Origin: an uncultured Verrucomicrobiae bacterium
GTDB taxonomy: Bacteria > Verrucomicrobiota > Verrucomicrobiia > Chthoniobacterales > JAATET01
Assembly (NCBI GenBank): GCA_963719495.1
Contig: CAVRCI010000002.1
Coordinates: 96,001-160,000, forward strand
Direction: 5' to 3'
Length of the DNA stretch: 64,000 nucleotides
Positions 346-59,603 of the stretch are shown here, piece after piece. The position numbers and the translations under genes were made by a program. Numbering within the stretch: position 1 is the first letter of the stretch; the number at the start of each line of letters is the position of its first letter. Under the pieces are notes generated by a model. The model was not told the DNA's origin. It was given only the letters and a program-made list of their open reading frames with translations, and searched no databases.

Positions 346-474
346 GGCTAACGTCAAGCTCAGCCACCCTGAGCGGAGCAACGAACGTCTAGGCGAGGTG
401 TTTGCCGGAAGGGGATCGTTCGGCCAAGGCTTGCCGCTGGTCGGCTAGGGGTTGGCTGCAGCGCCTTGTTCGTC
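346..474 (-). repeat. attC: attC variant specific to non-coding family A
   Basis: Same arms, distinct central region (GCAACGAACGTCTAGG...CCAAGGCTTGCC) found only next to family A cassettes. Confidence 0.9.
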
Positions 475-817
475 GGAAACGGTGACTGCACAATGGAGGA
501 CCAGAGCGTCCGACAGGCTGACGATGATCAAATCCAGCAAGCGGCTTCGTTAGAGCATTCAGTCGAAGAGGCTTCTGTGGTCCAGATTGACTACGCATTA
601 TAAATATATTGCTCGTGACACGAAAAGGGCGGAACGGATTCTGGATGGATCTACTCATGCCGCGTGAGCGCCCCAAGCTTGCATGGCAGGCGAATAATCG
701 TTGGCGTCGAATCGGGAGTGATCAATAGAAAACCAGAATCGTGCTCAATCGTATGCCGAATGGAATCGAACAACTCTGAACCGTTCCTTGATCTCAACCC
801 CAATAAATCAGGCGAAC
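468..817. other. Non-coding cassette family A, copy 1
   Basis: About 350 bp, 11 copies in the window, no convincing sense ORF. Confidence 0.8.
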
Positions 818-937
818 GTCAAGCTCAGCCACCCTGAGCGGGTAATCAAGCCAACCCTGAGGTGAGCTGCCAATAGCGGGACCGAGCAACCCCAGCCAGC
901 GAAGCGGCTAGGGGTTGGCTGCAGCGCCTTGTTAGGT
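811..937 (-). repeat. attC: Representative dominant attC site
   Basis: Minus strand ACCTAAC-AAGGC-GCTGCAGCCAACCCCTAGCC...GCTCAGGGTGGCTGAGC-TTGAC-GTTCGCC, i.e. R''/L''...L'/R' boxes with extrahelical bases. Confidence 0.95.
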
Positions 938-1660
938 CTCATTCGTATTCTTCTGTAGGGCGATTGAATAGCGAGTCACCCGCTCACATAGGAATGGAAT
1001 ATTACGAACGTCCTCGGCGTCCATGAGAAAGTTGCCTTCAGTATTGATTGCCGCTTGAGACATATCGAACTCGAAGGGTCGGCTGGTGATAAAAAATGTG
1101 AATAAAATCCCCGAAATGACAGTCCGGTATGTGTGATGGCCGTCCATCTTGAGCTTATCTGGCGGCAAGATCCAATCCGGTTGATACTCTCCCTCCAATA
1201 GCAGCCCCGTCAAAACAGTAGGATATAGATCTGGTGGCCCGGGGTCTCCAGCGAGAAGCATTAAACGTAGTCGTTCCTGATGTGGGCCAAGCTTTACAGC
1301 GGAGAAGATCTCAAGTGTCGAGATACCCATCCGCCAGATTAGCGACATGAGATATAGCTTGAAGGGAAGATAGTCGATGCCTCCAAGTCGCATATAGTGA
1401 TCGGTCCTCTCTACGAGATAAACCGTGTCGTCAAAAATTACCTTTTTTGCATATCCCTCCCATCTTGAAAATACGCCTTCACAAGTATCACAGAGCAGTT
1501 CTTCTCGAAAGCCTTTCTGTTCAAACTTCTGTTTCTGATTGGGATCTGTCGAGATGACGTAGAATCTGTGCTTATTATCGTATAGTGGCTTATACTGAAA
1601 CTCAGGAATGATGTGAGAATTTCGCAGTGCTGATTCTTGATGGCAAAGTTGGCATCTCAT
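932..1660 (-). CDS. Zn-binding HNH-like endonuclease protein
   Basis: CxxC...SHIIP...LLCxxCE motifs; stop codon inside the attC core. Confidence 0.65.
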   Translation of the reverse strand: MRCQLCHQESALRNSHIIPEFQYKPLYDNKHRFYVISTDPNQKQKFEQKGFREELLCDTCEGVFSRWEGYAKKVIFDDTVYLVERTDHYMRLGGIDYLPFKLYLMSLIWRMGISTLEIFSAVKLGPHQERLRLMLLAGDPGPPDLYPTVLTGLLLEGEYQPDWILPPDKLKMDGHHTYRTVISGILFTFFITSRPFEFDMSQAAINTEGNFLMDAEDVRNIPFLCERVTRYSIALQKNTNET

Positions 1661-1812
1661 AAGACCTAACGTCAAGCTCAGCCACCCTGAGCGGGTGACC
1701 GAGCCAACCCCCAGGTGAGCTGCCGGTAGCGGGTTCGAGCAACCCCAGCCAGCGAAGCGGCTAGGGGTTGGCTGCAGCGCCTTGTTCGGCTGTATTCGAG
1801 ATCGACGTTACT

Positions 1813-2112
1813 TTAACGACTATTTGCTTCTGTGATGCTGTCGGCGATGTCGGCCAACATGAGTGCAGCTTCCTTCACGATCTTTCCGATCACCACGTAG
1901 ATCACGCCGATAAGAATCGAGATAAATAATGTCATGACCCCAGGTAAGAACTGTTGAGTCATCATTCCGATTCCACCGATCAATCCAAATAGGACCACAA
2001 TTCCACCCAGAACATATATGAGTATTGCGATGATACCGATGACAGAGCGAAAGGTTGGATAGGCTGAATCAGATCGGATTGAGGAAATGTAGTTTTGTTT
2101 TTGTGTGTTCAT
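1813..2112 (-). CDS. Small two-TM membrane protein
   Basis: Two hydrophobic segments; fills the cassette. Confidence 0.75.
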   Translation of the reverse strand: MNTQKQNYISSIRSDSAYPTFRSVIGIIAILIYVLGGIVVLFGLIGGIGMMTQQFLPGVMTLFISILIGVIYVVIGKIVKEAALMLADIADSITEANSR

Positions 2113-2368
2113 GTTTTGGTTTTGGGTTTTGGTAAATTTTGTTTTTTGGGCTAGCTTGCCTCAATCTCGGATCTACTCGAAAAATCGAATGACCGGGCTT
2201 TCTCTAATTGGACGGAAATAGATCGAATGGATCAATATGAGCCGAACGTCAAGCTCAGCCACCCTGAACGGGCGGACTGAGGCTACTGGTGATCAACTGC
2301 CGGTAAGAGGTCCGCGCAACCTCTAGGAGCGCAGCGGATAGGGGTTGGCTGCAGCGCCTTGTTAGGCC

Positions 2369-2632
2369 TCATCGATCTGCGTGGACAAGACTCAAAATCT
2401 TCACGTGTCGATCAGGGAAGTCGATCCAGTAATGTATTGCGAATCCCAGCCGAATTGAAATCTCTACCCGGCGGCTTGTGGAATCTGCTTCTGAAAAATC
2501 TGAATAGCTGTCAGGAGATTGTCGGATCGCTTCAAAATGCCGGAACAATTGGTGCCGCTTCTTCTTCGGAAGTGAATCTAGAGTGTGAACGGTCTCTAAA
2601 TCGATTAAGAGTCTGTAGTCCAAAGGAATCAA
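2369..2632 (-). CDS. RelE/ParE-like toxin
   Basis: 87 aa with IHYWID...VKILSLVH C-terminus; coupled to the upstream small gene. Confidence 0.65.
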   Translation of the reverse strand: MIPLDYRLLIDLETVHTLDSLPKKKRHQLFRHFEAIRQSPDSYSDFSEADSTSRRVEISIRLGFAIHYWIDFPDRHVKILSLVHADR

Positions 2633-3620: not shown

Positions 3621-3912
3621 ATGGGCCTAACGTCAAGCTCAGCCACCCTGAGCGGGCAATCAAGCCAACCCTGATGTGAGCTGCCGATAGAGGGATCGAG
3701 CAACCCCAGCCAGCGAAGCGGCTAGGGGTTGGCTGCAGCGCCTTGTTCGGCTGTATTCGAAGTTAGTAAAGACTTGCTCAATAAGTAGCGCTTCGCGGGT
3801 GCATCGCAAATAAAATGTTCCTGCTCTTCTGTAATGTGGAATCCCATCCCAACGAAAAACGGCATAGCTGTCGTGCTCGATTCGGTGTAGAGAAGTGAAA
3901 TACGCTTGTCAT

Positions 3913-5399: not shown

Positions 5400-5846
5400 G
5401 AAATACGCTTGTCATTTGCTTCATGTTCGATTGCGATGTAAAGCAGCCGCCCAATTCCTTTCCTTGTCCAGCGGTGGTGAACGTAGAAGTAATCAATGTG
5501 GCCATCACGGTCGAGCTCCGCAAAACCGAGTATTGATTGCTGGTGGCGGACAACAAAAGGATTCTTCAGACGAATCCGATCGGCCCACTCATTTATATCT
5601 TTGTTTGATGGCGCCCAACGCTCGCATTGCGCTGGCGTGTAATCACGTCCGTTGACGATGTGAGTCGTGTCATAATATATTTTCCAAAGGATTGCCTCTT
5701 CTCCGGAAACATATCGATTAACGAGGTAAGTTGAATTGCTCATAGTGAAGCCGAACGTCAAGCTCAGCCACCCTGAGCGGGCAATCAAGCCAACCCCGAG
5801 GTGAGCTGCCAGTAGCGGGACCGAGCAACCCCAGCCAGCGAAGCGG

Positions 5847-6987: not shown

Positions 6988-7120
6988 CCACCGGAGGTCG
7001 AGCCGAACGTCAAGCTCAGCCACCCTGAGCGGGCAATCGAGCCAACCCTGAGGTGAACTGCCAGTAGAGGGTCCGCGCAATCCCAGCCGCGAAGCGGCTA
7101 GGGGTTGGCTGCAGCGCCTT

Positions 7121-7500
7121 GTTCGGCTATAACCGCACAAGCTACGAGTGATGTTGCAATCACGCTGCCAACCCCTCCCTGAATTTGACCGTATGCATTT
7201 TATTATTGACCGTTCGAATAAGAGAAATGCCGTAAACTAGATGAAACTGAGCAGCGCGTGGAACGAGAGATGGCTTGAACAGGGCTTGTAGGGTGAGACC
7301 TGAAAATCACCAAAATATTTTCGCTTCGCTTCGCGAAGAAATGCGGATGAAGGGGAGGTGATGAAATGGCGTGGATTTTCTCCAACGTGCCGCAATTACA
7401 GAATCGCTGGGCATCACCATATATTCCGCTCCGTCAAGCAATGTCGGGAGCGATTAGCGAGTTGCTCAGGAAATATCATCCGCCGGAGGCTGAGCCGAAC
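7121..7500. other. Non-coding cassette family F, copy 1
   Basis: Homologous to 24467-24848, no conserved ORF. Confidence 0.65.
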
Positions 7501-7616
7501 GTCAAGCTCAGCCACCCTGAGCGGAGCAACGAACGTCTAGGCAAGGTGTTTGCCGGAAGGGGGATCGGTTGGCCAAGGCTTGCCTCAGACCGGCTAGGGG
7601 TTGGCTGCAGCGCCTT

Positions 7617-7966
7617 GTTCGTCGGAAACGGTGACTGAACAATGGAGGACCCGAGCGTCCGACAGGCTGACGATGACCAAATCCAGCAAGCGGCATCGTT
7701 AGAGCATTCAGTCGGAGGGGCTCCTGTGGTCCAGATTGACTACGCATTATAAATATATTGCTCGTGACACGAGAAGGGCGGAACGGATTCTGGATGGATC
7801 TACTCATGCCGCGTGAGCGCCCCAAGCGTGCATGGCAGGCGAATAACCGTTGGCGTCGAATCGGGAGTGATCAATGGAAAACCAGAATCGTGCTCAATCG
7901 TATGCGGAAGGGAATCGCGCAGCTCTGAACTTTTTCTTGATCTCAACTCCAATAAATCAGGCGAAC
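7617..7966. other. Non-coding cassette family A, copy 2
   Basis: Homologous to 468-817. Confidence 0.8.
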
Positions 7967-8079
7967 GTCAAGCTCAGCCACCCTGAACGGGCGAGCGGAG
8001 GCAACTGGTGATCAGCTGCAGGTAGAGGGTCCGCGCAACCCCAAGAGCGAAGCGGATAGGGGTTGGCTGCAGCGCCTTG

Positions 8080-8394
8080 TTAGGGCTGTATTATGATATA
8101 GCTTCCAGGGTCCGCCGTATCCACCGCTGTGACAATCTTCGGAATGAAGGGCTTGAGAAATGGCCAGCGAATCGTGAAGAGTTCGACAATAGCGATCTTG
8201 CGGTTGGACAAGTTTTGCTGATACCGGAGGTTCTTGTCTCCGAGGACAAAAACATCGAAGCGGGCGTCAATCAGCTTCATCAACTCACCATTTTTAACGC
8301 CGGCCCAACCCTGATGTTGCACCGAAGTAGTGGAATGGTGATCGAGATACTTCAGTAGCGGATGAGGAACATTCTCATCAATGATGACCGTCAT
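8080..8394 (-). CDS. DUF5615 PIN-like toxin
   Basis: IIDENVP...GWAGVKNGEL...DKNL motifs. Confidence 0.85.
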   Translation of the reverse strand: MTVIIDENVPHPLLKYLDHHSTTSVQHQGWAGVKNGELMKLIDARFDVFVLGDKNLRYQQNLSNRKIAIVELFTIRWPFLKPFIPKIVTAVDTADPGSYIIIQP

Positions 8395-10877: not shown

Positions 10878-11381
10878 CGCCGGAGGCCATGCCGTGGGGT
10901 GAACGATTGCCTTGGATGGTTCGAACGTCGAACAAAATAGCTGATCTGGCCATGAATGGCTCTGCAGGCATGGGCGGATGAGCGGTCGATTCGGAGCAAT
11001 TCCGTAAACGATCAATTTCATCGGGACGAGGTCTTCGTGGTCGCTGCTCTGAGCGGGCCACGATGACCGGTCGAGCTACAAAGGATGAATTGCATTCAAA
11101 TCGTGGCCACCGGAGAAGACGAGCAGATCTGTGGTGATGTGCGGGATGAGAGGGTGAATGGGCTGTCCTGGCACATCAGCCACAGATCGGCGGCCGAGCT
11201 ACCAGTGACTCTTCGCTGGCCAATGTATCAAATACATCATCCGCCGGAGGCTTCAGGAAAACCCAACGTCAAGCTCAGCCACCCTGAGCGGGTCACCGAG
11301 CCAACCCTGAGGTGAGCTGCCAGTAGCGGGACCGAGCAACCCCAGCCAGCGAAGCGGCTAGGGGTTGGCTGCAGCGCCTTG

Positions 11382-11780: not shown

Positions 11781-11918
11781 GGTATGTATGTGTTGGTGCC
11801 CTAACGTCAAGCTCAGCCACCCCGAGCAGGCAGTCGAGCCAACCCTGAGGTGAGCTGCCAATAGCGGGTCCGAGCAACCCCAGCCAGCGAAGCGGCTAGG
11901 GGTTGGCTGCAGCGCCTT

Positions 11919-12310
11919 GTTAGACTCGTATTGCTTTTCTCCGTTTCTGTATACTTTGTTTGCTAAGTATAAGTGTGTGAGGTAAGCTGTCTTAGATGTG
12001 GTGATGGTGGAGGAGTTAAGTTCAGTGAGCCAGTAGCATCAGTCCTGATTGAATGAATTACACAAAATCACCTAAAAAATTCGTTTGCTGCGCACAAAAT
12101 ATGAGTTCGTCTTCGGATCACTTTCAATAACTGTTCTCGCTTCGCTCGACTTAGAATTCAAGCCACTCAGTGAATTCATCCACCGGAGGTCTGCATATCG
12201 ATACAAAATCCGCAGGCTCCGTTGCAAATGTTCGGCTTGGCGGGAGCGCTTCATGCATCTCATTACCTCATCCACCGGAGGTCTTCATGACTTTTGTATA
12301 AGAGTCTAAC
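11919..12310. other. Non-coding cassette family B, copy 1
   Basis: Homologous to 41270-41662 and 49361-49754. Confidence 0.7.
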
Positions 12311-14177: not shown

Positions 14178-14184
14178 GAGTTTA

Positions 14185-14559: not shown

Positions 14560-14685
14560 ATTTTAGGCTAACGTCAAGCTCAGCCACCCTGAGCGGGCAA
14601 TCAAGCCAACCCTGAGGTGAGCTGCCAATAGCGGGAGCGAGCAACCCCAGCCAGCGAAGCGGCTAGGGGTTGGCTGCAGCGCCTT

Positions 14686-14968
14686 GTTCGGATCCGCATC
14701 TTCGTGGTCCCGTCGGATCTAAAATCTGCAGCCTTGCTCGCCGCCATGCCGAGTGATGATCGAGCCATACCAGCGAGTCAGACCGATGCGCTTCGATACG
14801 GAAATTGACGTCGAACGGACTGCGCAAAAATACCTTGGTTTGGGCTTCCGGCCAGGAAAATCAACCTTATTGTGGACACCTTCCGAATACACCCAATTTA
14901 TACAAAGCAAATTACAAACAAGCTTGTCTGCAGTTTGGGCGCCGTAGAACAGGGGCATAGGTCCGAAC
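14686..14968. other. Non-coding cassette family C, copy 1
   Basis: About 283 bp; homologous to 26510, 35127 and 48965. Confidence 0.7.
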
Positions 14969-18758: not shown

Positions 18759-18931
18759 ATTGTTGCAGCGGGCGCGTAGTGAAAGGGATCTGTGAGCGAA
18801 TTTATGAATAAAGCCGAACGTCAAGCTCAGCCACCCTGAGCGGGCAATCAAGCCAACCCTGAGGTGAGCTGCCAATAGCGGGTCCGCGCAACCCCCGCCG
18901 CGAAGCGGCTAGGGGTTGGCTGCAGCGCCTT

Positions 18932-19433
18932 GTTCGACGCGCATCTGTTCAAACTACGCATATCGTTACTTCCTCAAGCCAACCCCTCCGTATCTCTACC
19001 GAAGGCACTCCAATAATGAAGATCAAACCTTCGGAGAGGCTTCGCGATTGGAATCACTGAAATGCGATTGGAAGATTGTAGAGAGTAGAGCCTGAACTGG
19101 AGCGGGGGGCTTGGGACCAAGCTCACAAATATACGCCTGGAAGATTGTAGGGGGGTAGAGGCTGAATTGGAATAGAGAGGGGGCATTAAGCTCACAAATA
19201 GAAGCTCGGAACGATTGTTGGAACATCTGGTGACTTCCGAACGATTGGTCGAAAACCAAAATATTCTATCCGTTGAGAAACTGTGTTTGTTGCCTAGGCC
19301 CCGATTCTCCGTCCTACGCTGGTCGAAAAAATAGAACCCGACCGCTTGTAACAAGATGTGGTGTCCCCTGACGGCGTCCGAATATGTGAGAGCGAAATAT
19401 AGTCATCCGCCGGAGGCTCACAATGAGTCGAAC
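18932..19433. other. Non-coding cassette family D, copy 1
   Basis: About 500 bp with internal ~69-bp repeats; 4 copies. Confidence 0.7.
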
Positions 19434-20594: not shown

Positions 20595-20730
20595 CCACCG
20601 GAGGTCGAGCCGAACGCCAAGCTCAGCCACCCCGAACGGGGATCCGAACTCTGAAGAAGGATGTAAACTGCCACCCGGAAGTCAGTGCAACAGCGGCCGG
20701 TGATCGGCTAGGGGTTGGCTGCAGCGCCCT

Positions 20731-21012
20731 GGTCGTCGGGACGGGTCGCAGCGGAAGTGGCAATCGATAGCGTCCGGCAGGAACAAGATAAGGAAGTTGG
20801 GAAGGGGGTGATTTGCTGCAAGAGGTCCGAGTCACTGATGGCATGCACATATCTCCTCGTGATGGCGAAAGCGTGGCAAAAAAGACAGACAAACGAGATT
20901 ACCAGCAAAGCAGAGGGACGCGGAACGATGAGGAGATGATGAGAACGATACTCGGACGAATAAGATCTGAAGGTCGTAAACCGGGCGTTCAAAACAGATA
21001 TATTAGGCGACC
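20731..21012. other. Family E-type cassette (diverged) with GGT/ACC cores
   Basis: Ends GGTCGTC...GGCGACC. Confidence 0.7.
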
Positions 21013-21537: not shown

Positions 21538-21736
21538 TGTTGCTAATTGGAATTTAAGGTTTGAGTGAGCTTTGGCTTTGTTGAGGAGCGCGATCTCGAT
21601 CCACTTTTTCAGAGCCGAACGTCAAGCTCAGCCACCCTGAGCGGGGCAACGAACGTCTAGGCAAGGTGTTTGCTGGAAGGGGGATCGGTCGGCCAAGGCT
21701 TGCCTCAGGCCGGCTAGGGGTTGGCTGCAGCGCCTT

Positions 21737-22086
21737 GTTCGTCGGAAACGGTGACTGCACAATGGAGGACCTGAGCGTCCGACAGGCTGACGATGATCAA
21801 ATCCAGCAAGCGGCTTCGTTAGAGCATTCAGTCGAAGAGGCCTCTGTGGTCCAGATTGACGACGCATTATAACTATATTGCTCGTGACACGAGAAGGGCG
21901 GAACGGATTCTGGATTGGTCTACTCTTGCCGCGTGAGCGCCCCAAGCGTGCATGGCAGGCGAAAAACCCTTGGCGTCGAATCGGGAGTGATCAATGGAAA
22001 GCCAGAATCGTGCTCAATCGTATGCCGAAGGGAATCGAGCAACTCTAAACTTTCCCTTGATTTTAACCCCAATAAATCAGGCGAAC
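21737..22086. other. Non-coding cassette family A, copy 3
   Basis: Homologous to 468-817. Confidence 0.8.
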
Positions 22087-24344: not shown

Positions 24345-24466
24345 AATAGCTAACGTCAAGCTCAGCCACCCTGAGCGGGCAATCGAGCCAACCCTGAGGT
24401 GAACTGCCAGTAGAGGGTCCGCGCAATCCCAGCCGCGAAGCGGCTAGGGGTTGGCTGCAGCGCCTT

Positions 24467-24848
24467 GTTCGGCTCTAACCGCACAAGCTACGAAGGGTGT
24501 TGCAATCACGATGCCAACCCCTCCTTGAATTTGACCGTATGCATTTTACTATTGGCCGTTCGGATAAGGGGGAATGCCGTAAACTAGATGAAACTGAGCA
24601 GCGTGTGGAATGAGATAAGACTGGAACCGCAGTCAAAAAGTGGGACCTGAGAATGACCAAAAGATTTCGCTTTCGCTTCGCGAAAGAATGCGGATGAAGG
24701 ACTGATGGTGGAATTTCGGTGATCCGTCGCCGATGGTTCATCTTCGGAGCACTGCTGGGCAACATCATATTTTATAGCTCCGTCAAGCGGTGTTGGGAGC
24801 GATCAACAAGTTGCTCAGACGATATCATCCGCCGGAGGCAAGCCGAAC
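24467..24848. other. Non-coding cassette family F, copy 2
   Basis: Homologous to 7121-7500, same attC interior. Confidence 0.65.
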
Positions 24849-24963
24849 GTCAAGCTCAGCCACCCTGAGCGGGGCGACGAAAGTCTAGGAAAGGTGTTTG
24901 CGGGAAGGGGATCGGTCGGCCAAGGCTTGCCTCGGGCCGGCTAGGGGTTGGCTGCAGCGCCTT

Positions 24964-25314
24964 GTTCGTCGGAAGAGGTGACTGCACAATGGAGGACTTG
25001 ATCGTCCGACAGGCCGACGATGGGTCAAACCCAGCAAGCGGCTTCGTTAGAGCATTCAGTAGAAGAGGCTTCTGTGGTCCAGATTGACTACGCATTATAA
25101 ATATATTGCTCGTGACAAGAGCAGGCCGGAACGGATTCTGGATGGATCTACTCATGCCGCGTGAGCGCCCCAAGCGTGCATGGCAGGCGAATAATCGTTG
25201 GCGTCGAATCGGGAGTGATCAATAAAAAACCAGAATCGTGCTCAATCGTATGACGAAGGGAACCGAACAACTCTGAACCTTCCCTTGATCTCAACCCCAA
25301 TAAATCAGGCGAAC
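24964..25314. other. Non-coding cassette family A, copy 4
   Basis: Homologous to 468-817. Confidence 0.8.
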
Positions 25315-25836: not shown

Positions 25837-26046
25837 TGGTATTTAGAGGACTCCGGTGACCGATAGCAGAAGAAGTGGCAATATTCTCATATTGCTCAGG
25901 AATATTTCATCCACCGGAGGTCGAGCCGAACGTCAAGCTCAGCCACCCTGAGCGGGGCAACGAACGTCTAGGCAAGGTGTTTGCGGGAAGGGGATCGTTC
26001 GGCCAAGGCTTGCCTCAAGCCGGCTAGGGGTTGGCTGCAGCGCCTT

Positions 26047-26396
26047 GTTCGTCGGAAGAGGTGACTGCACGATGGAGGACCCGATCGTCCGACAGGCCGA
26101 CGATGGTCAAACCCAGCAAGCGGCTTCGTTAGAGCATTCAGTAGAAGAGGCTTCTGTGGTCCAGATTGACTACGCATTATAAATATATTGCTCGTGACAA
26201 GAGCAGGCCGGAACGGATTCTGGATGGATCTACTCATGCCGCGTGAGCGCCCCAAGCGTGCATGGCAGGCGAATAATTCTTGGGGTCGAATCGGGAGTGA
26301 TCAATGAAAAACCAGAATCGTGCTCAATCGTATGCCGAAGGGAATCGAGCAACTCTGAACTTTCCCTTGATCTTAACTCCAATAAATCAGGCGAAC
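26047..26396. other. Non-coding cassette family A, copy 5
   Basis: Homologous to 468-817. Confidence 0.8.
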
Positions 26397-26509
26397 GTCA
26401 AGCTCAGCCACCCTGAGCGGGCATTCAAGCCAACCCTGAGGTGAGCTGCCGATAGCGGGACCGAGCAACCCCAGCCAGCGAAGCGGCTAGGGGTTGGCTG
26501 CAGCGCCTT

Positions 26510-26792
26510 GTTCGGATCCGCCCGTTCGTGGTCCCGTCGGATCTACAATTTGCAGCCTTGCTCGTCGCCATGCCGATTGATAATCGAGCCATACCAGCGA
26601 GTCAGACCGATGCGCTTCGCTACGAAAATTGACGTCGAATGGAATGCGCAAAAATACCTTGGTTTTGGCTTTCAGATACACAAATTCACCTCATTGTGGA
26701 CCCCTTCCGAATACGCCAATTTTATACAAAGCAAATTACGAACGAGCTTGCTTGCAGTTTGGGCTTCGAAGACCAGGGGCATAGGTCCGAAC
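26510..26792. other. Non-coding cassette family C, copy 2
   Basis: Homologous to 14686-14968. Confidence 0.7.
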
Positions 26793-28657: not shown

Positions 28658-28786
28658 TGTATGAAAGCCGAACGTCAAGCTCAGCCACCCTGAGCGGGCA
28701 ATCAAGCCAACCCTGAGGTGAGCTGCCAATAGCGGGAACGAGCAAGCCCAGCCAGCGAAGCGGCTAGGGGTTGGCTGCAGCGCCTT

Positions 28787-29287
28787 GTTCGACGCGCATC
28801 TGTTCAATCTACGCATATCGTGACTTCCTCAAGCCAACCCCTCCGTATCTCTACCGAAGGCACTCCAATAATGAAGATCAAACCTTCGAAGAGGCTTCGT
28901 GATTGGAATCACTGAAATGCGATTGGAAGATTGTAGAGAGTAAAGGCTGAACTGGAGCGGGAGGCTTGGGATCAAGCTCACAAATATACGTCTGGAAGTT
29001 TGTAGGGGGTAGAGGCTTAATTGGAATAGAGAGGGGGCATCAAGCTCACAAATAGAAGCTTAAAACGATTGTTGGGACATCTGGTGACTTCCGAACGATT
29101 GGTCGAAAATCAAAATATTCTATCCGTTGAGAAACTGTGTTTGTTGCCTAGGCCCCGATCCTCCGTCCTACGCTAGTCAAAAAAATAGAACCCGACCGCT
29201 TGAAACAAGATGTGGTGTTCCCTGACGGCGTCCGAATATGTAAGAGCGAAATATAGTCATCCGCCGGAGGCTCACAATGAGTCGAAC
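28787..29287. other. Non-coding cassette family D, copy 2
   Basis: Homologous to 18932-19433. Confidence 0.7.
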
Positions 29288-31851: not shown

Positions 31852-31981
31852 TATAATAATGACCTAACGCCAAGCTCAGCCACCCCGAACGGGGGACCAA
31901 ATTCTGAGCTTGATGTGATGGAATGGACGGAAGTCAGAACAAGAGCGCCGGGTGACGGCTAGGGGTTGGCTGTAGCGCTCT

Positions 31982-32375
31982 GGTCGTCGGGACGGCTCGT
32001 GGACATGATGGCCGGCCGTAGCATCCGACAGGGGCTAAACCGTGGAAGTCAGGAACAATTCAACCACATGGACCGAGGCTCGTGCCAGACTGGTCGTGGC
32101 AATCTTTCCTCGTGATGGTGAAAATGTAGTCGAAACAGATCAATCAGCGAAGTCGCGGAGGCGCAAGCTCGACCCGGCTCTGCGGGTGGAGCGGCGAGAC
32201 CCGGAACGGCGGAGTGAGATCGGAGAGGTGGAAGAGGGCGTCTGTGACGAGGGGAGTCGGCGGATGGAAGGGGAAAGGGGCATCCAGTCGAATTCTCTCG
32301 GCTCAGTCGCCCGATCGAATCAAAAGCAAGCGTTTCTAAACCGAACTCAATCATTATTTTTTGTATAAGGCGACC
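31982..32375. other. Family E cassette with GGT/ACC cores (Pro/Arg-rich 101-aa ORF 32049-32354 of doubtful status)
   Basis: Homologous to 50506-50899 and 59211-59603. Confidence 0.7.
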
Positions 32376-33492: not shown

Positions 33493-33736
33493 GTCAGTCT
33501 CGAAAAGACAGAGTTGGTAATCGAACAACGAACTCGACTGGAGACAAATTGGACGATCCGAAGAGGTCCTGGGTCATGCAGCAAGTTGCTCAGAAATATC
33601 ATCCACCCGAGGTCGAGCCGAACGTCAAGCTCAGCCACCCTGAGCGGGCAATCAAGCCAACCCTGAGGTGAGCTGCCAATAGCGGGAACGAGCAACCCCA
33701 GCCAGCGAAGCGGCTAGGGGTTGGCTGCAGCGCCTT

Positions 33737-34237
33737 GTTCGACGCGCATCTGTTCAAACTACGCATATCGTGACTTCCTCAAGCCAACCCCTCCGTATCT
33801 CTACCGAAGGCACTCCAATAATGAAGATCAAACCTTCGAAGAGGCTTCGTGATTGGAATCACTGAAATGCGATTGGAAGATTGTAGAGAGTAAAGGCTGA
33901 AGTGGAGCGGGAGGCTTGGGATCAAGCTCACAAATATACGTCTGGAAGTTTGTAGGGGGTAGAGGCTTAATTGGAATAGAGAGCGGGCATCAAGCTCACA
34001 AATAGAAGCTTAAAACGATTGTTGGGACATCTGGTGACTTCCGAACGATTGGTCGAAAATCAAAATATTCTATCCGTTGAGAAACTGTGTTTGTTGCCTA
34101 GGCCCCGATCCTCCGTCCTACGCTAGTCAAAAAAATAGAACCCGACCGCTTGAAACAAGATGTGGTGTTCCCTGACGGCGTCCGAATATGTAAGAGCGAA
34201 ATATAGTCATCCGCCGGAGGCTCACAATGAGTCGAAC
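33737..34237. other. Non-coding cassette family D, copy 3
   Basis: Near-identical to 28787-29287. Confidence 0.7.
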
Positions 34238-34960: not shown

Positions 34961-35126
34961 ATCATGAAAGATACGCCAATGGCGTATGCATGCAACTGAT
35001 TTCAGAGCCGAACGTCAAGCTCAGCCACCCTGAGCGGGCAACCGAGCCAACCCCCAGGTGAGCTGCCAATGGCGGGACCGAGCAACCCCAGCGAGCGAAG
35101 CGGCTAGGGGTTGGCTGCAGCGCCTT

Positions 35127-35408
35127 GTTCGGATCCGCCCGTCCGTGGTCCCGTTGGATCTGCTATCTACAGCCTTGCTCATTGTCTAGCCGACTGATGA
35201 TCGAGCCATACTAACGAGTGATACTGATGCTGGTCGATAGCGAAATACGCAACGAATGAGCTGGGTAAAATACCTTGGTTTGGGCCTTCGGATACTCAAA
35301 GCAACCTCATTGTGATCACCTTCCGAATACGCCAATTTTATACAAAGCAAACTACGAACGAGTTTGTTTGCAATTCGGGCGTCCGGCGACTGGGGCATAG
35401 GTCCGAAC
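35127..35408. other. Non-coding cassette family C, copy 3 (diverged)
   Basis: Homologous to 14686-14968. Confidence 0.7.
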
Positions 35409-36987: not shown

Positions 36988-37119
36988 GATTTGTATGACC
37001 GAACGTCAAGCTCAGCCACCCTGAGCGGGGCAACGAATGTCTAGGAAAGGTGTTTGCGGGAGGGGGATCGGTCGGCCAAGGCTTGCCGTAGGCCGGCTAG
37101 GGGTTGGCTGCAGCGCCTT

Positions 37120-37469
37120 GTTCGTCGGAAGAGGTGACTGCACAATGGAGGACCCGATCGTCCGACAGGCCGACGATGGTCAAACCCAGCAAGCGGCTTC
37201 GTTAGAGCATTCAGTAGAAGAGGCTTCTGTGGTCCAGATTGACTACGCATTATAAATATATTGCTCGTGACAAGAGCAGGGCGGAACGGATTCTGGATGG
37301 ATTTACTCATGCCGCGTGAGCGCCCCAGGCGTCCATGGCAGGCGAATAACCGTTGGGGTCGAATCGGGAGTGATCAATGGAAAACTAGAATCGTGCTCAA
37401 TCGTATGCCGAAGGGAATCGAGCAACTCTGAACCTTCCCTTGATCTCCCCTCTAATAAATCAGGCGAAC
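37120..37469. other. Non-coding cassette family A, copy 6
   Basis: Homologous to 468-817. Confidence 0.8.
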
Positions 37470-39397: not shown

Positions 39398-39538
39398 ATG
39401 TAGTTATGTTTAATTGGCCGAACGTCAAGCTCAGCCACCCTGAGCGGGGCAACGAACGTCTAGGAAAGGTGTTTGCGGGAAGGGGATCGGTCGGCCAAGG
39501 CTTGCCTCAGGCCGGCTAGGGGTTGGCTGCAGCGCCTT

Positions 39539-39888
39539 GTTCGTCGGAAGAGGTGACTGCCCCATGGAGGACCCGATCGTCCGACAGGCCGACGATGGTC
39601 AAACCCAGCAAGCGGCTTCGTTAGAGCATTCAGTAGAAGAGGCTTCTGTGGTCCAGATCGACTCCGCATTATAAATATATTGCTCGTGACAAGAGAAGGG
39701 CGAAACGGATTCTGGATTGATCTACTCTTGCCGCGTGAGCGCCCGAAGCGTGCATGGCAGGGGAATAACCGTTGGCGTCGAATCGGGAGTGATGAATGGA
39801 AAACCAGAATCGTGCTCAATCGTATGCCGACGGGAATCGAATAACTCTGAACCTTCCCTTGATCTCAACTCCAATAAATCAGGCGAAC
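39539..39888. other. Non-coding cassette family A, copy 7
   Basis: Homologous to 468-817. Confidence 0.8.
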
Positions 39889-41108: not shown

Positions 41109-41269
41109 GCGATTCTGTGTGTTCTTTCACGTTCTAGTTTGGATTTTCCGGCTAACGTCAAGCTCAGCCACCCTGAGCGGGTAACCGAGCCAGCCCTGAG
41201 GTGAACTGCCAGTAGCGGGTCCGCGCAACCCCAGCCAGCGAAGCGGCTAGGGGTTGGCTGCAGCGCCTT

Positions 41270-41662
41270 GTTAGACTCGTATTACTTTTCTCCGTTTCTG
41301 GATGTTCCGGCTTCTACGTATAATTGTGTGAGGGGAAGCTGCCTCGAATGTGGCGATCGTAGAGGAGTTAAGTTCAGTGAGCCAGTGGCATCAGTCCTCA
41401 TCGGATGAATTATGCAGAATTGCTCAAAAAAATTCGAGTGCTGCGCACATAATATGAGTTCGCCTTCGGATCACTTTTAATAACCGTTCTCGCTTCGCTC
41501 GACTTTGAATCCAAGCCACTCGTTGAATTCATCCACCGGAGGTCTAGATATCGACACAAAATCCGCAGGCTCCACTGCAATGTTCGGCTTGGCTGAAGCG
41601 CTTCCTGCATCTCATAATTTCATCCACCGGAGGTCTTCATGATTTTTGTATAAGAGTCTAAC
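41270..41662. other. Non-coding cassette family B, copy 2
   Basis: Homologous to 11919-12310. Confidence 0.7.
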
Positions 41663-42823: not shown

Positions 42824-42999
42824 AGTATGCAAGTGAACTTTGATAGAAGAAATGTGAAAATGGAAGGTATAAATATGAAACCGAACGTCAAGCTCAGCCA
42901 CCCTGAGCGGGTAACCAAGCCAACCCTGAGGTGAACTGCCGGAAGCGGGACCGAGCAACCCCAGCCAGCGAAGCGGCTAGGGGTTGGCTGCAGCGCCTT

Positions 43000-43272
43000 G
43001 TTCGGATCCGCCCGTCCGTGGTCCCGCTCAGCATCTTATTCGAGGGCATTGCTTGTTTCATGCATTGAATTGCTTCAGGTCGAACTTGATGGCTTGCGTG
43101 ATCTCGATTGAACGAACCCCCGAGGGTCAAACCTCATTCTCCGCTTCTTCTGCGCATTCACGACCCAATCTACTTGTGCGGATCGAGCGCATACACATCT
43201 CGACAAAAAGCAAATCCGGAGGCCGTCTGCAATCAAGTGGGAATATCGTAGTCGAAGGGGATAGGTCCGAAC
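43000..43272. other. Non-coding cassette with family C ends and a different interior
   Basis: GGATCCGCCCGTCCGTGGTCCC...GGGGATAGGTCCGAAC. Confidence 0.55.
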
Positions 43273-43803: not shown

Positions 43804-43939
43804 CCGCCGGAGGCTGAGCCGAACGTCAAGCTCAGCCACCCTGAGCGGAGCAACGAACGTCTAGGCGAGGTGTTTCCCGGAAGGGGATCGTTCGGCCAAG
43901 GCTTGCCGCTGGTCGGCTAGGGGTTGGCTGCAGCGCCTT

Positions 43940-44289
43940 GTTCGTCGGAAACGGTGACTGCACAATGGAGGACCAGAGCGTCCGACAGGCTGACGATGAT
44001 CAAATCCAGCAAGCGGCTTCGTTAGAGCATTCAGTCGAAGAGGCTTCTGTGGTCCAGATTGACTACGCATTATAAATATATTGCTCGTGACACGAAAAGG
44101 GCGGAACGGATTCTGGATGGATCTACTCATGCCGCGTGAGCGCCCCAAGCTTGCATGGCAGGCGAATAATCGTTGGCGTCGAATCGGGAGTGATCAATAG
44201 AAAACCAGAATCGTGCTCAATCGTATGCCGAATGGAATCGAACAACTCTGAACCGTTCCTTGTTCTCAACCCCAATAAATCAGGCGAAC
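43940..44289. other. Non-coding cassette family A, copy 8
   Basis: Near-identical to copy 1. Confidence 0.8.
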
Positions 44290-44404
44290 GTCAAGCTCAG
44301 CCACCCTGAGCGGGGCAACGAACGTCTAGGCAAGGTGTTTGCCGGAAGGGGATCGGTCGGCCAAGGCTTGCCTCAGGCCGGCTAGGGGTTGGCTGCAGCG
44401 CCTT

Positions 44405-44754
44405 GTTCGTCGGAAGAGGTGACTGCACAATGGAGGACCCGATCGTCCGACAGGCCGACGATGGTCAAACCCAGCAAGCGGCTTCGTTAGAGCATTCAGT
44501 AGAAGAGGTTTCTGTGGTCCAGATTGACTCCGCATTATAAATATATTGCTCGTGACAAGAGCAGGACGGAACGGATTTTGGATGGATCTACTCATGCCGC
44601 GTGAGCGCCCCAAGCGTGCATGGCAGGCGAATAATCGTTGGCGTCGAATCGGGAGTGATCAATAGAAAACCAGAATCGTGCTCAATCGTATGCCGAAGGG
44701 AATCGAACAACTCTGAACCTTCCCTTGATCTCAACCCCAATAAATCAGGCGAAC
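44405..44754. other. Non-coding cassette family A, copy 9 (tandem with copy 8)
   Basis: Homologous to 468-817. Confidence 0.8.
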
Positions 44755-45952: not shown

Positions 45953-46598
45953 GTTTTACCGAACGTCAAGCTCAGCCACCCCGAACGGGCGACCGAGTCT
46001 CGCTGATGTGAACTGCCATCTGGGCGTTCCTCAACCCCAGCCCCGAAGCGGCTAGGGGTTGGCTACAGCGCCTTGTTGGGCCTGCACCGCTCAAGCAACT
46101 AGTAGCGATCATACCTCGATGACAACCCCTCCGTATCAATACCGAAGGCTCTCAAAACTCCTCGTTCGAACCAATTTCAATGCAGCGAATCCAAAATCAC
46201 ATTTTTGCGGGTGCAAGGGTTGTCGGCACATAACGCCGATTTCACGAATGTAGATTGCATCTAGAATATTTTACTGACCGTTGCCCAGTGAGGAAGCTCG
46301 CAATTCCAGATTGGCCTCTAGCTGATGCATTTGAATTATTGTCGCGAAAACAGATGGCGAGTCCTGAGTGCAACGAGCTTCGGAACTCAGCTTTATATTG
46401 TCTACGTCGCAGGGAATTGATTGTTGGCTTGCAAGGGTGACGCCGCATTCGCATTTCTTTTTCAGGACTATTAATGGAGCCCAACGTCAAGCTCAGCCAC
46501 CCTGAGCGGATGATTGAGCCAACCCTGAGGTGAGCTGCCAGTAGCGGGACCGAGCAACCCCAGCCAGCGAAGCGGCTAGGGGTTGGCTGCAGCGTTTT

Positions 46599-47103
46599 GT
46601 TCGACGCGCATCTGTTCAAACTACGCATATCGTGACTTCCTCTAGCCAACCCCTCCGTATTTCTACCGAAGGCACTTCCACAATGAAGATAGAATCTCTG
46701 AAAAGGCTCCGCAATCGTGGTTAGTAATTTGCGCCTAGAAGATTGTATGGGGGTTGAAGCGCAATTGGAAACAGGGGCGGGAATCAAGCTCACAAATATT
46801 CGCCTGGAAGATTGTTGGTAATGGGAAGTTGAATTAGAACGGAGGGATGGGAATCAGGCTCATCAATATGCGCTTGGAAGGATTGTGGGGGCTTCTGGTG
46901 ACTTCCAATTGATTGTTCGAAGTCACCAAAATATTATACACGGCGGGCAACTCTGAGCGCCGCCTAGCCTTTGCGTATACCTCCAACGCTGGTCGAAAAT
47001 AGAGGAACCGACGGTTTCAAACTGGATCTGGCCTAGTCTGATTTCGTCCAGACAACTGTAATCAAAAATTAGTCATCCGCCGGAGGCTCACAATGAGTCG
47101 AAC
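46599..47103. other. Non-coding cassette family D, copy 4 (diverged)
   Basis: Same ends and internal repeats as 18932-19433. Confidence 0.65.
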
Positions 47104-48784: not shown

Positions 48785-48964
48785 AAAATCGAGAATAGAT
48801 GATATAATTAATGTGGAAGCGTCAATGCCTTTTGGCCTAAGGCTGCCGAACGTCAAGCTCAGCCACCCTGAGCGGGCATTCAAGCCAACCCTGAGGTGAG
48901 CTGCCGATAGCGGGACCGAGCAACCCCAGCCAGCGAAGCGGCTAGGGGTTGGCTGCAGCGCCTT

Positions 48965-49247
48965 GTTCGGATCCGCCCGTTCGTGGTCCCGTCGGATCTA
49001 CAATTTGCAGCCTTGCTCGTCGCCATGCCGATTGATAATCGAGCCATACCAGCGAGTCAGACCGATGCGCTTCGCTACGAAAATTGACGTCGAATGGACT
49101 GCGCAAAAATACCTTGGTTTGGGCTTTCAGATACGCAAATTCACCTCATTGTGGACCCCTTCCGAATACGCCAAGTTTATACAAAGCAAATTACGAACGA
49201 GCTTGCTTGCAGTTTGGGCTTCGAAGACCAGGGGCATAGGTCCGAAC
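48965..49247. other. Non-coding cassette family C, copy 4
   Basis: Near-identical to 26510-26792. Confidence 0.7.
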
Positions 49248-49360
49248 GTCAAGCTCAGCCACCCCGAGCGGGCGGTCGAGCCAATCCTGAGGTGAACTGC
49301 CAATAGCGGGTCCGAGCAACCCCAGCCAGCGAAGCGGCTAGGGGTTGGCTGCAGCGCCTT

Positions 49361-49754
49361 GTTAGACTCGTATTGCTTTTCTCCGTTTCTGGATGCTCTG
49401 TTTTCTAAGTATAATTGTGTGAGATGAAGCTGTCTCAAATGTGGCGATGGTGAAGGGGTTGAGTTCAGTGAGCCAGTGGCATCAGTCCTGATTGGATGAA
49501 TTACGCAAAATGGCTCAAAAAAATTCGAGTGCTGCGCACGAAATATGAGTTCACCTTCGGATCACTTCTAATAACCGTTCTCGCTCCGCTCGACTCTGAA
49601 TTCAAGCCGGCCAGTGAATTCATCCACCGGAGGTCTAGATATCGATACATAATCCCCAGGCTCAGTTGCAAATGTTCGGCTTGGCAGGAGTGCTTCATAC
49701 ATCTCATTATTTTATCCACCGGAGGTCTTCATGAATTTTGTATAAGAGTCTAAC
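49361..49754. other. Non-coding cassette family B, copy 3
   Basis: Homologous to 11919-12310. Confidence 0.7.
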
Positions 49755-50381: not shown

Positions 50382-50505
50382 AATGCCCTAACGCCAAGCT
50401 CAGCCACCCCGAACGGGGGACCAAACTCTGAGCTTGATGTGATGGAATCGCCGGAAGTCAGGACAAGAGCGCCGGGTGACGGCTAGGGGTTGGCTGCAGC
50501 GTTCT

Positions 50506-50899
50506 GGTCGTCGGGACGGTTCGTGGACAAGATGGCCGGCCGTAGCATCCGACAGGGGCTAAACCGTGGAAGTCAGGAACAATTCAACCACATGGACCGA
50601 GGCTCGAGCCAGACTGGTCGTGGAAATATTTTATCGTGATGGTTAAAATGTAGTCGAAACAGATCAATCAGCGAAGTCGCCGGGGCGCAAGCTCGACCCG
50701 GCTCTGCGGGTGGAGCGGCGAGACTCGGAACGGCGGAAGGAGATCGGAGAGGTGGACGAGGGCGTCTGTGACGAGGGGAGTCGGCGGATGGAAGGGGAAA
50801 GGGGCATCCAGTCGAACTCCCTCGGCTCAGTCGCTCGATCGAATCAAAAGCGAGCGTTCTTAAACCGAACTCAATCATTATTTTTTGTATAAGGCGACC
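50506..50899. other. Family E cassette with GGT/ACC cores
   Basis: Homologous to 31982-32375. Confidence 0.7.
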
Positions 50900-50989
50900 G
50901 TCAAGCTCAGCCACCCTGAGCGGGTGATCGAGCCAACCCTGAGGTGAACTGCCGGTAGCGGGTTCGAGCAACCCCAGCCAGCGAAGCGG

Positions 50990-57423: not shown

Positions 57424-57595
57424 GCGATATTTCTACCGGATTTTCGAATATCGTGCAAGAAATCGTTCATGGACCCAACGTCAAGCTCAGCCACCCTGAG
57501 CGGGGCAACGAACGTCTAGGCAAGGTGTTTGCTGGAAGGGGGATCGGTCGGCCAAGGCTTGCCTCAGGCCGGCTAGGGGTTGGCTGCAGCGCCTT

Positions 57596-57945
57596 GTTCG
57601 TCGGAAACGGTGACTGCACAATGGAGGACCTGAGCGTCCGACAGGCTGACGATGATCAAATCCAGCAAGCGGCTTCGTTAGAGCATTCAGTCGAAGAGGC
57701 CTCTGTGGTCCAGATTGACGACGCATTATAACTATATTGCTCGTGACACGAGAAGGGCGGAACGGATTCTGGATTGGTCTACTCTTGCCGCGTGAGCGCC
57801 CCAAGCGTGCATGGCAGGCGAAAAACCCTTGGCGTCGAATCGGGAGTGATCAATGGAAAGCCAGAATCGTGCTCAATCGTATGCCGAAGGGAATCGAGCA
57901 ACTCTAAACTTTCCCTTGATTTTAACCCCAATAAATCAGGCGAAC
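57596..57945. other. Non-coding cassette family A, copy 10
   Basis: Matches copy 3. Confidence 0.8.
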
Positions 57946-58060
57946 GTCAAGCTCAGCCACCCTGAGCGGGGCAACGAACGTCTAGGCAAGGTGTTTGCCG
58001 GAAGGGGATCGGTCGGCCAAGGCTTGCCTTTGGTCGGCTAGGGGTTGGCTGCAGCGCCTT

Positions 58061-58410
58061 GTTCGTCGGAAACGGTGACTGCACAATGGAGGACCAGAGC
58101 GTCCGACAGGCTGAGGATGATCAAATCCAGCAAACGGCTTCGTTAGAGCATTCAGTAGAAAATGCTTCTGTGGTCCAGATTGACTCCGCATTATAAATAT
58201 ATTGTTCGTGACAAGAGCAGTGCGGAACGGATTCTGGATGGATCTACTCATGCCGCGTGAGCGCCCCAAGCGTGCATGGCAGGCGAATAGCCGTTGGCGT
58301 CGAATCGAGAGTGATCAATGGAAAATTAGAATCGTGCTCAATCGTATGCCGAAGGGAATCGAGCAACTCTGAACCTTCCCTTGATCTCCACTACAATAAA
58401 TCAGGCGAAC
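58061..58410. other. Non-coding cassette family A, copy 11 (tandem with copy 10)
   Basis: Homologous to 468-817. Confidence 0.8.
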
Positions 58411-58475
58411 GTCAAGCTCAGCCACCCCGAACGGGGGACCGAACTCTCAGGTTGGTGTGATGGAATGGACGGAAG

Positions 58476-59084
58476 TCAGAGCAACAGTGCCGGGTAGCGG
58501 CTAGGGGTTGGCTGCAGCGCCTTGTTGGATCGCATTTCTCTGTTTTTCGACAATCTTAAAAGTGCACAGATACTCCCGACGAAGATGAGAGTCAGAACAG
58601 TAGGTTCAGGTATGGCGGCAATGGCCTGGGGATTCTCCGTAAAGAAGGGATCCGTGTCAAAATAGATGACCGGAATCTCATCATCTCGCATGTCAAAAGA
58701 GTTGTTGGGAACGAGATTCGCATCCAAGCGGCGTTCCCATTTGATTGCTAGATCGCGGCCTGGACGATTTAGAAGAAATACCAATACACTCCCTTCTGAG
58801 ATTGAAATCGAATCAGTTGTAGCGAAGAGGCTTGTTGAATGAGTTCGAACTTCGTGATTCGTAAAGGATGAATCAAAATTTAGTGTATCACTCCCGTCAG
58901 TCGAGGTGATGGACCATCCGGTTATGTTGGTATCTGTGATCGCACCCAATGTTCCATCAGTCGAAATGAAGCCTGAAGTGAAAAATCCATTCTGGGTTCC
59001 GAAATCGGATAATTGATAAGTTAGAGCAGAAGCACTATGGGCAAGAGCGAGTGCGGAGATAAGAAATGTGAGTGAGGTTTTCAT
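58476..59084 (-). CDS. PEP-CTERM exosortase-target surface protein
   Basis: Signal peptide; IPEP, TM and basic tail. Confidence 0.8.
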   Translation of the reverse strand: MKTSLTFLISALALAHSASALTYQLSDFGTQNGFFTSGFISTDGTLGAITDTNITGWSITSTDGSDTLNFDSSFTNHEVRTHSTSLFATTDSISISEGSVLVFLLNRPGRDLAIKWERRLDANLVPNNSFDMRDDEIPVIYFDTDPFFTENPQAIAAIPEPTVLTLIFVGSICALLRLSKNREMRSNKALQPTPSRYPALLL

Positions 59085-59210
59085 AAATAGATCCAACGCC
59101 AAGCTCAGCCACCCCGAACCGGGGACCAAACTCTGAGCTTGATGTGATGGAATTGACGGAAATCAGAACAAGAGCGCCAGGTGACGGCTAGGGGTTGGCT
59201 GCAGCGCCCT

Positions 59211-59603
59211 GGTCGTCGGGACGGCTCGTAGAGACAACGGTGCGCCGTAGCATCCGACAGGGGCTGAACCGTGGAAGTCAGGACCAACGCGACCATAGCG
59301 ACCGAGGCTCGAGCCAGACTGGTCGCGGCAATATCTTCTCGTGATGGTGAAAAGGTAGCCGAAGCGAATCAATCAACGAAGTCACTGAAACGGAAGCTCG
59401 ACCCGGCTCTGCGGCTGGAGCGGCGAGACACGGAACGGCGGAGGGAGATCGGAGAGGTGGAAGAGGGCGGCTGTGACGAGGAGAGTCGGCGGATGGAAGG
59501 GGAAAAGGGCATCCAGTCGAAGCTGCTCGGCTCAGTCGCCCGCCCGAATCTAAAGCCGACGTCCCTGATCCGAACTCAATCATTATTTTTGTAATAGGCG
59601 ACC
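59211..59603. other. Family E cassette with GGT/ACC cores
   Basis: Homologous to 31982-32375. Confidence 0.7.

Follow-up and report, generated by a model that had tools for sequence, protein, structure and literature searches.

Why a quarter to a half of the cassettes in large integron arrays should carry no gene is a question that has been standing since 2006. It is raised again by the window, namely the whole stretch of 64,000 nucleotides analyzed here (C2:96001-160000 of genome G000), in which repeated gene-less cassettes belonging to six families (A to F) and their relatives are scattered through the array of a sedentary chromosomal integron. In the window and in five congener genomes (G001-G005), these families are non-coding, show a pattern of copying by single units, are mosaic and amplified species by species, and keep their ends and their length. 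They may well be passengers copied by the integrase and constrained at the ends and in length; that the integrase is the copier, that the host draws no benefit from them, and why there is a floor to their length are the parts of this reading which we infer. The genus supplies six related arrays in which the amplified family is never the same and toxin-antitoxin cassettes serve as internal controls for codon and promoter analyses, so that the choice between passenger and regulator is directly testable; the first tests favour passengers in the case of families A, C, and D.

An integron array rich in gene-less cassettes

The sedentary integron of G000 holds about 210 cassettes. A motif scan of the genome detected 198 complete attC sites between 27.4 and 175.1 kb of C2, all on the - strand, which is well above the more than 19 like-oriented similar attC sites required in PMC4889954, where integrons in Verrucomicrobia are also mentioned. 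A repeat of about 120 bp recurs every few hundred bases when the window is compared with itself. The integron integrase gene (C2:176417, + strand; TIGR02249, 427 bits versus a cut-off of 265) lies head to head with the array, beside attI and divergent from the cassettes; the first cassette, which follows attI directly and belongs to family A, begins at G|TT a short way upstream. Large arrays with related attC sites were found in all five congeners. The host is verrucomicrobial, with Verru_Chthon cassette proteins exceeding their cut-off.

Cassettes were delimited by cutting at the attC sites, which gave 94 complete cassettes in the window. Families were obtained by clustering 1078 cassettes from G000 and the congeners, those of 1500 bp or more being excluded beforehand; the congener arrays were sampled around known attC matches only and are possibly incomplete. 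The 24 families labelled gene-less include family 22 (four cassettes, of which c150 in the window encodes DUF4160) and family 24 (four cassettes, without pN/pS values), and the shares and group tests resting on this label are off by at most 8/1078. In all 24 families the R' and R'' ends are complementary at 6-8 of 8 positions in their commonest form (6/8 in A and E).

The test of dN/dS in all six frames called for in the preliminary description was run as pN/pS (the ratio of nonsynonymous to synonymous polymorphisms). The consensus open reading frames (ORFs) of at least 40 amino acids in families A-F (n = 23) gave values of 0.61-1.46, versus 0.10-0.17 in four true genes of two toxin-antitoxin families taken as a control, which indicates neutral drift of the A-F ORFs. 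The substitutions are spread evenly over the codon positions and pN/pS is flat in the six frames, which fits the criterion of Boucher et al. (2006); the gene-less families do hold ORFs of 50-101 codons (at about 50% G+C), longer than the strict limit of 150 bp set by the same authors, without any codon constraint. That these cassettes encode small proteins after all is highly improbable. A 67-codon ORF of family D starting with GTG is intact in 11 of 14 copies and shows a pN/pS of 0.61 (p = 0.014, uncorrected, in one of 23 tests), and a 50-codon ORF of family A is intact in 25/27 copies, but the A ORF has a pN/pS of 1.46, the 101-codon ORF of E one of 1.27, and family D is rich in transitions (50 vs 23), which inflates the synonymous counts. 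Pfam matches were obtained with 22 of the 71 window ORFs scanned and with none of the seven coming from families A-F; the absence of any Atlas match for the E ORF is weak evidence.

The copies are dispersed. Among the sister pairs with three differences or fewer, belonging to 13 families, none of 113 shares the upstream neighbour family and two of 113 share the downstream one; in family A, no pair out of eight has common neighbours, and the sisters lie a median of 134 slots apart. Placement is random: the number of gene-less neighbours was 21 in G000, versus 23.8 expected, and no departure was found in nine array segments. Sisters which share no neighbours and are neither clustered nor evenly spaced form the pattern expected of single-cassette excision and re-insertion, and dispersed near-identical copies with different neighbours suggest that both steps depend on the integrase. 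Four-gamete incompatibility is lower between near sites and rises with distance (p = 0.002 in eight of nine families), and therefore the copies also recombine. The recurrence of the families is not due to chance, and all the genome-wide matches of 15 representative cassettes fall in cassette arrays; the family representatives had no match in G000 outside the arrays, no match pointing to an origin in phages or plasmids was found, and a 22-mer of family A had no metagenome match. The possibility that the bodies are decayed attC sites was discarded: the attC profile matches 4 of 1078 bodies, none of them from A-F.

In the proposed process, the integrase would excise one cassette as a single unit and re-insert it, normally at attI. 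Integron recombination is resolved by replication, so that the old copy can persist and the copy number rises. With no protein cost, a short cassette with working recombination ends could outnumber useful ones, a different family winning in each species, and homologous recombination between copies would yield mosaics. Selection would act on the R boxes, the attC site, the length, whose floor is near 270 bp, and a small number of short modules, most of the interior positions being free to drift. The floor might be due to slippage between near-identical attC sites, which would delete very short cassettes; loss by slippage has been observed with test cassettes of 60 and 400 bp, and excision is affected by length and by pfold, the predicted probability of the recombinogenic fold (PMC5371416).

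The gene-less labelled families account for 23-50% of the cassettes per genome (among the 1078 cassettes shorter than 1500 bp), and the dominant family differs from species to species, with 28 copies in G000, 16 in G001, 33, 29, and 16 in G002, 10 in G003, 82 in G004, and 56 in G005. Types which are rare in G000 dominate elsewhere: the family of window cassette c136, a sister of family C, has 16 copies in G001, and a family with two copies in G000 has 82 in G004. Family D has 11 copies in G001. All 19 cases of a family reaching at least five copies in one genome are gene-less, and coding families reach four at most; all 127 bodies shorter than 300 bp belong to eight families without a long ORF. 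Family A was found full-length in one of 60 relatives (94% identity) and partially in one more, and E in none of 16. Family C and its sister families keep their terminal 12 and approximately 24 bases and a length of 269-284 bp, and the identity of their interiors is 42-55%.

In A, C, and D, the variable sites show an even distribution (p = 0.10, 0.054, and 0.29, respectively). The suggestion in the preliminary description that the DNA or RNA itself is under selection thus stands as regards the ends, the length and a few short modules, and is not borne out for the interiors of these three families. Several facts sit less easily with the passenger reading. Indels are scarce, beyond what drift would be expected to leave (2 vs 152 substitutions in A, 4 vs 173 in C), in a comparison without a matched neutral control; variation is uneven in B and in all eight large congener families; two hairpins common to other gene-less families carry compensatory changes; and Vibrio gene-less cassettes often have promoter activity which software missed (PMC11014356). 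Short modules also recur across families which cannot otherwise be aligned. The 5' module, a strand-specific motif of 11 nt located mostly 7-27 nt into the cassette, is present in 66 of 512 families, including coding ones, at a frequency approximately 55 times that in the rest of the genome; the 3' module, a motif of 12 nt, occurs in 10 families (B and F among them) at a fixed distance of 43-45 nt from the attC that follows. In genome records, the B 3' motif was found only in uncultured Verrucomicrobiae bacterium, at 13 loci, 12 of which have attC. Part of the mosaicism, lastly, could be assembly consensus, because the assemblies are probably metagenome-derived.

Compared with the majority of attC sites in G000, those of family A fold far better (pfold 0.74 vs 0.017 in the median), but the dominant families of G001-G005 fold like other cassettes or worse: a high pfold as a general cause of amplification was rejected, as it holds for A only. 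The idea that the modules act as decoys against attC folding was likewise dropped, since in 14 of 16 sets the flanks change pfold by less than 0.6 log, the exceptions being C (-1.2) and one congener family (-0.9), with three to four copies per family.

Of the three functions offered in the preliminary description, that of a passenger of the integrase fits best, although not in the form of miniature inverted-repeat transposable elements (MITEs). MITEs are short, non-coding, multi-copy elements relying on an enzyme encoded elsewhere, and the gene-less cassettes resemble them in all these respects; they differ in having neither transposon-type terminal repeats nor target duplications, and they are bounded by the attC crossover, occur only between attC sites and are confined to arrays. 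Retrons and diversity-generating retroelements are recognized by a reverse transcriptase and by adenine-biased variation. Both were discarded: no PF00078 match was found in G000 (98.6% complete; the control was positive in 3 of 14 genomes) and the substitution spectrum is not A-biased.

The class of gene-less repeated cassettes is already known. Non-coding cassettes with many paralogues were described in Vibrio by Boucher et al. (2006; PMC1382264), amounting to 6-49% of the cassettes; one family reaches 45 copies in one V. vulnificus strain (CMCP6) and 34 in another. They show conservation over the whole length, no codon pattern and no homologues outside the genus; these authors proposed selfish, promoter or RNA roles together with gene conversion. 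A repeated empty cassette has also been recorded in Xanthomonas. Families A-F resemble the Vibrio cassettes in their large non-coding share, their whole-length conservation without a codon pattern and the functional options they raise. They differ in that they belong to Verrucomicrobiota, are unrelated in sequence and have bodies which are mosaics of shared modules, in that six congeners each amplify another family, and in that the crossover triplets of some families are GGT/ACC or GAT/ATC; turnover species by species and compensated triplets are what distinguish the present case. The literature search did not bring up any paper dealing specifically with such families in Verrucomicrobia.

Gene-less families present in the window

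The gene-less repeat families comprise 30 of the 94 complete cassettes (32%) and 14,490 of 63,316 bp (23%), so that the share of about 30% announced in the preliminary description is correct by number of cassettes and too high by length. Its account of the units as non-coding, length-conserved integron cassettes proved to be accurate, as did its statement that the copies range from near-identical to diverged: identity within families is 72-99.7%. All the cassettes listed below lie on the - strand.

The 11 window copies of family A agree exactly with the number initially counted; genome-wide there are 31, 30 of them full-length on C2 and one on C7. Their bodies are 346-347 bp long. They are c75 (352..816; a gene-less body of 346 bp followed by a 119-bp attC at the low end), c84 (7500..7965), c103 (21620..22085), c108 (24848..25313), c110 (25931..26395), c128 (37004..37468), c132 (39423..39887), c138 (43824..44288; one difference from c75), c139 (44289..44753; in tandem with c138 and carrying the attC type with high predicted pfold), c159 (57479..57944; body identical to that of c103), and c160 (57945..58409; in tandem with c159). 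Family B, described as three copies plus a diverged one, was recovered as such: c98 (18819..19432; a 498-bp body with the 5' module, an internal duplication of approximately 57 nt, and the 3' module 43 nt before attC), c115 (28673..29286), c123 (33623..34236), and the diverged c143 (46485..47102). The two copies of family F, c83 (7008..7499; 5' and 3' modules) and c107 (24354..24847), were confirmed.

In the other three families the initial tally had to be amended. Family C has the four copies announced, c92 (14572..14967; 279-bp body), c111 (26396..26791), c125 (35013..35407), and c146 (48851..49246), but the supposed chimeric copy, c136 (42886..43271), is a member of a distant sister family, with C-like ends and 54% identity to C in the interior. 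Family D was represented by three copies instead of four, c88 (11805..12309; with the 5' module in two copies), c134 (41156..41661), and c147 (49247..49753); the claimed fourth may or may not be c142 (45964..46484), a gene-less cassette of a further type whose profile is related to a family with 56 copies in G005. The four copies attributed to family E are three, c120 (31868..32374), c149 (50392..50898), and c162 (59097..59602), plus a shorter relative, E2 (c101, 20615..21011), with a 278-bp body and an identical copy at C2:53058. The 5' part of c86 (10890..11266), not included in the 30, is an interrupted copy of another gene-less family, resembling fam58, with a compensated hairpin at approximately 11072-11034 followed by IS-like (insertion sequence-like) DNA.

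The remaining window cassettes consist of single genes, toxin-antitoxin pairs (RelE/HTH, RHH/PIN, DUF433/DUF5615, and PemK-like) and IS-interrupted cassettes. Further copies of A, E, and E2 are carried by an inverted block of 10 attC sites within the main array, near IS-like repeats (G000:C2:46500-57460). A cluster of five attC sites on C7 (G000:C7:37565-40952) contains one cassette of family A, one of family B and, at 99.5% identity, a further copy of c91 from the window; no integrase match was found on that part of the contig.

Possible promoter, Rho, and structured-RNA roles

The gene-less cassettes might instead be portable expression modules, each bringing a promoter in sense or antisense orientation, or else serving as a C-rich stretch without translation where Rho stops read-through, and switching silent blocks of cassettes on or off by shuffling. 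The toxin-antitoxin cassettes of the genus provide a means of looking for the promoters. A promoter model was trained on 37 two-gene toxin-antitoxin-like cassettes picked by shape (leave-one-out median 9.8, versus 3.5 in shuffled leaders); it consists of TTG-C/A-C/A-N, a spacer of mostly 16-17 nt, and TANNNT, the end of which is usually 5-7 nt upstream of the ATG. The -10 hexamer is found mostly at this distance from the first ATG in the toxin-antitoxin-like cassettes of the window (16539-17327, 7966-8654, and 30491-31264) and of the congeners, and its position points to leaderless mRNAs and makes the promoter model usable in this uncultured genus. With this model, none of 19 gene-less families exceeded the 95th percentile of its own shuffles, i.e. 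no conserved housekeeping -35/-10 motif was found; family A scored 7.0 on the sense and 5.2 on the antisense strand, versus 8.3 for the median of the null. When 8.4 kb were scanned generically, promoter-like sites numbered 11 (expectation 7.4 +/- 2.6) and terminator-like ones 7 (expectation 9.1). The promoter modules envisaged in the preliminary description thus receive no in silico support. The Vibrionaceae superintegrons studied by Blanco et al. (2024; PMC11014356) are similar in having gene-less units scattered among promoterless genes and toxin-antitoxin cassettes; they differ in that promoter activity was measured there in gene-less cassettes, where it was unpredictable in silico, and nothing rises above shuffles here under the lineage-trained model. 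Since prediction was unreliable in Vibrio, the null result does no more than lower the probability of the promoter idea.

As regards Rho, poorly translated cassettes have been found to be polar (PMC11511950), and untranslated ones may be polar by default. G000 has two full-length rho homologues (C2:211564-212796 and C1:67476-68564), scoring 463 and 457 bits, both under the curated cut-off of 509. The sense strand is richer in C in the 24 labelled families than in 171 single-gene cassettes (skew 0.10 vs 0.05, p = 0.013), strongly so in B, D, and E, and most of the gene-less families combine an AT-rich core with shared modules at fixed positions. However, A and C are not C-rich, there is no conserved island in A, C, or D, and the cassettes show neither even spacing nor avoidance of tandems. 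All in all, expression modules are a rather unlikely explanation. No exact match to a LexA box was found in the array.

A further alternative is that the cassettes are elements acting as structured RNA or single-stranded DNA, with sense-strand hairpins recognized by a protein or a nuclease and the fold as the conserved trait. The common polymorphisms in the 5' hairpin of family A (approximately 16-102) are G-U compatible on the sense strand, and 0.966 of the paired cells vs 0.935 are consistent (p = 0.04, the structure being derived from the same sequences); at the A 3' end, one C-G/A-T swap flanks a 6-bp stem. Low p values were obtained at C 1-100 (p = 0.024) and B 361-460 (p = 0.015), and 15 of 156 windows were under 0.05, versus about 8 expected. 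Against this, no Rfam match was found in the window at the gathering score, nor in 43272-51700 at E <= 1; the folding of A does not surpass that of shuffled sequences on either strand (z +0.9, +1.8, and +0.5); the structure-conservation index is 0.41-0.77; paired and unpaired columns vary equally in A-E; and eight alignments yielded no stacked covarying pairs, the terminal R-box pair being detected as a control. A value of p = 0.0002 for the A 3' helix was discarded because the null is invalid where a consensus pair is unpaired. The structured RNAs suggested initially thus find no counterpart in Rfam, and the covariation check leaves weak hints (the A 5' hairpin and a few windows) and no stacked covariation in A-D.

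Compensated hairpins do exist in other gene-less families. A 19-bp inverted repeat enclosing about 55 nt, present in seven congener families, has four pairs changed on both sides, and a 14-bp hairpin has three compensated pairs; both beat shuffled and slid controls on the covariation score, these controls ignoring kinship, and both are absent from families A-F, for which a conserved fold is an unlikely explanation. The 19-bp repeat lies at L060:10295-10400 and at similar loci in G001-G004, and most of the families which contain it also have GAT as their crossover triplet. The 14-bp hairpin (window 11034-11072, - strand; L041, L061, L073, and others) is common to several gene-less families of 570-660 bp, its window copy lying in the interrupted c86. 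A 20-mer of the congener hairpin occurred at 101 metagenome loci, none of which had an attC-profile match or a long match, and these occurrences were treated as due to chance.

Altered crossover triplets

Among the 1078 cassettes, 987 have the triplets GTT/AAC, 64 GAT/ATC, 7 GGT/ACC, 3 GAT/ACC, and 17 scattered one-sided variants. The 74 cassettes with GAT/ATC, GGT/ACC, or GAT/ACC all belong to eight gene-less families, two of which are singletons placed by profile similarity. In the window, A-D and F keep GTT/AAC, whereas the three E copies and E2 carry a compensated GGT/ACC core; in c120, the GGT is at 32375-32373 and the matching ACC at 31984-31982. Frumerie et al. (PMC2811028), who call the GTT absolutely conserved in the integrons then known, reported that compensated GAT and GGT attC sites recombine with wild-type attI1 at 1.9 and 1.0 times the reference and that a non-complementary triplet gives 6e-6 vs 2.2e-3 in the IntI1 integration assay. 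The compensated sites are alike in the two cases, but those mutants were made in the laboratory and assayed for integration by IntI1, whereas the present ones are natural multi-copy families known from their sequences. No report of natural multi-copy cassettes with compensated non-GTT cores was found in the literature covered, most subscription papers and all the supplements, where cassette tables are to be found, lying outside this coverage. Such cassettes qualify the rule that the triplet is invariant.

Because their neighbours carry GTT, both attC sites around a GGT or GAT cassette are non-complementary at the cleavage triplet. The predicted pfold drops in comparison with the circular form by 2.8 log at the cassette's own site (n = 70; about 600-fold) and by 3.8 log at the upstream site (n = 63; about 6,000-fold), versus 0.3 log (2-fold) at 935 ordinary junctions and 0 at four matched tandems. 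By analogy with the mutant data in PMC2811028, GGT and GAT cassettes are predicted to insert normally and to be poorly excised: the circular form would be a perfect substrate, and after insertion among GTT cassettes there would be a mismatch at both flanking attC sites. It is possible, although we regard it as doubtful, that they are one-way ratchets, easily inserted and hard to remove, which pin their neighbour and serve either their own persistence or the stability of the array, and which have arisen at least twice. Such a lock is not seen in the way they are distributed: these families attain up to 28 copies and hold slot 2 in G002, they are neither shifted away from attI nor adjacent beyond chance, and recent sisters number 15/67 in altered-triplet versus 96/287 in canonical families. 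The cassettes lend themselves to testing whether a cassette can favour its own insertion over its excision; if they were as mobile as the rest, they would simply extend the Vibrio case to a further phylum.

A host device at the level of the whole array would combine this pinning of neighbours with the homology provided by the attC-body-attC repeats, which would be used for the exchange of blocks between strains. The recombination between copies and the fall in pfold at GGT/GAT junctions agree with it. Block exchange has nevertheless left no mark, the sister pairs having no shared neighbours; cassettes with altered triplets do not accumulate at a distance from attI (mean rank 0.54 and 0.46); and the idea of a misfolding of the flanking attC by the 5' and 3' modules failed. 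We consider such a device quite unlikely.

Some other features were noted in and around the arrays. Two window cassettes are broken by IS-like DNA, at 3631-5755 and 8655-11266; the latter has a reverse-strand ORF of 446 amino acids with DruA, Mom, and DDE_Tnp_1-associated matches and ends with the 3' portion of c95, the PIN cassette. The cassette at 61570-63060 carries a gene (62276-63046) with an HpiC1-like domain and a PEP-CTERM tail. A second integron-integrase-like gene is present in G000 on C1 (G000:C1:371896-372837, L002; 249 bits versus the cut-off of 265), a contig on which the genome motif scan detected no attC of the array type. Directly downstream of intI, a unit of 278 bp is repeated 5.6 times with 93% identity (L009:3443-4999; C2:177442-178998). 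In G004, intI lies in the middle of a 300-kb cassette region on C7, and a more divergent intI (68% identity) with its own array is present on C5 (L064:5220-6164 and L073:1687-2637).

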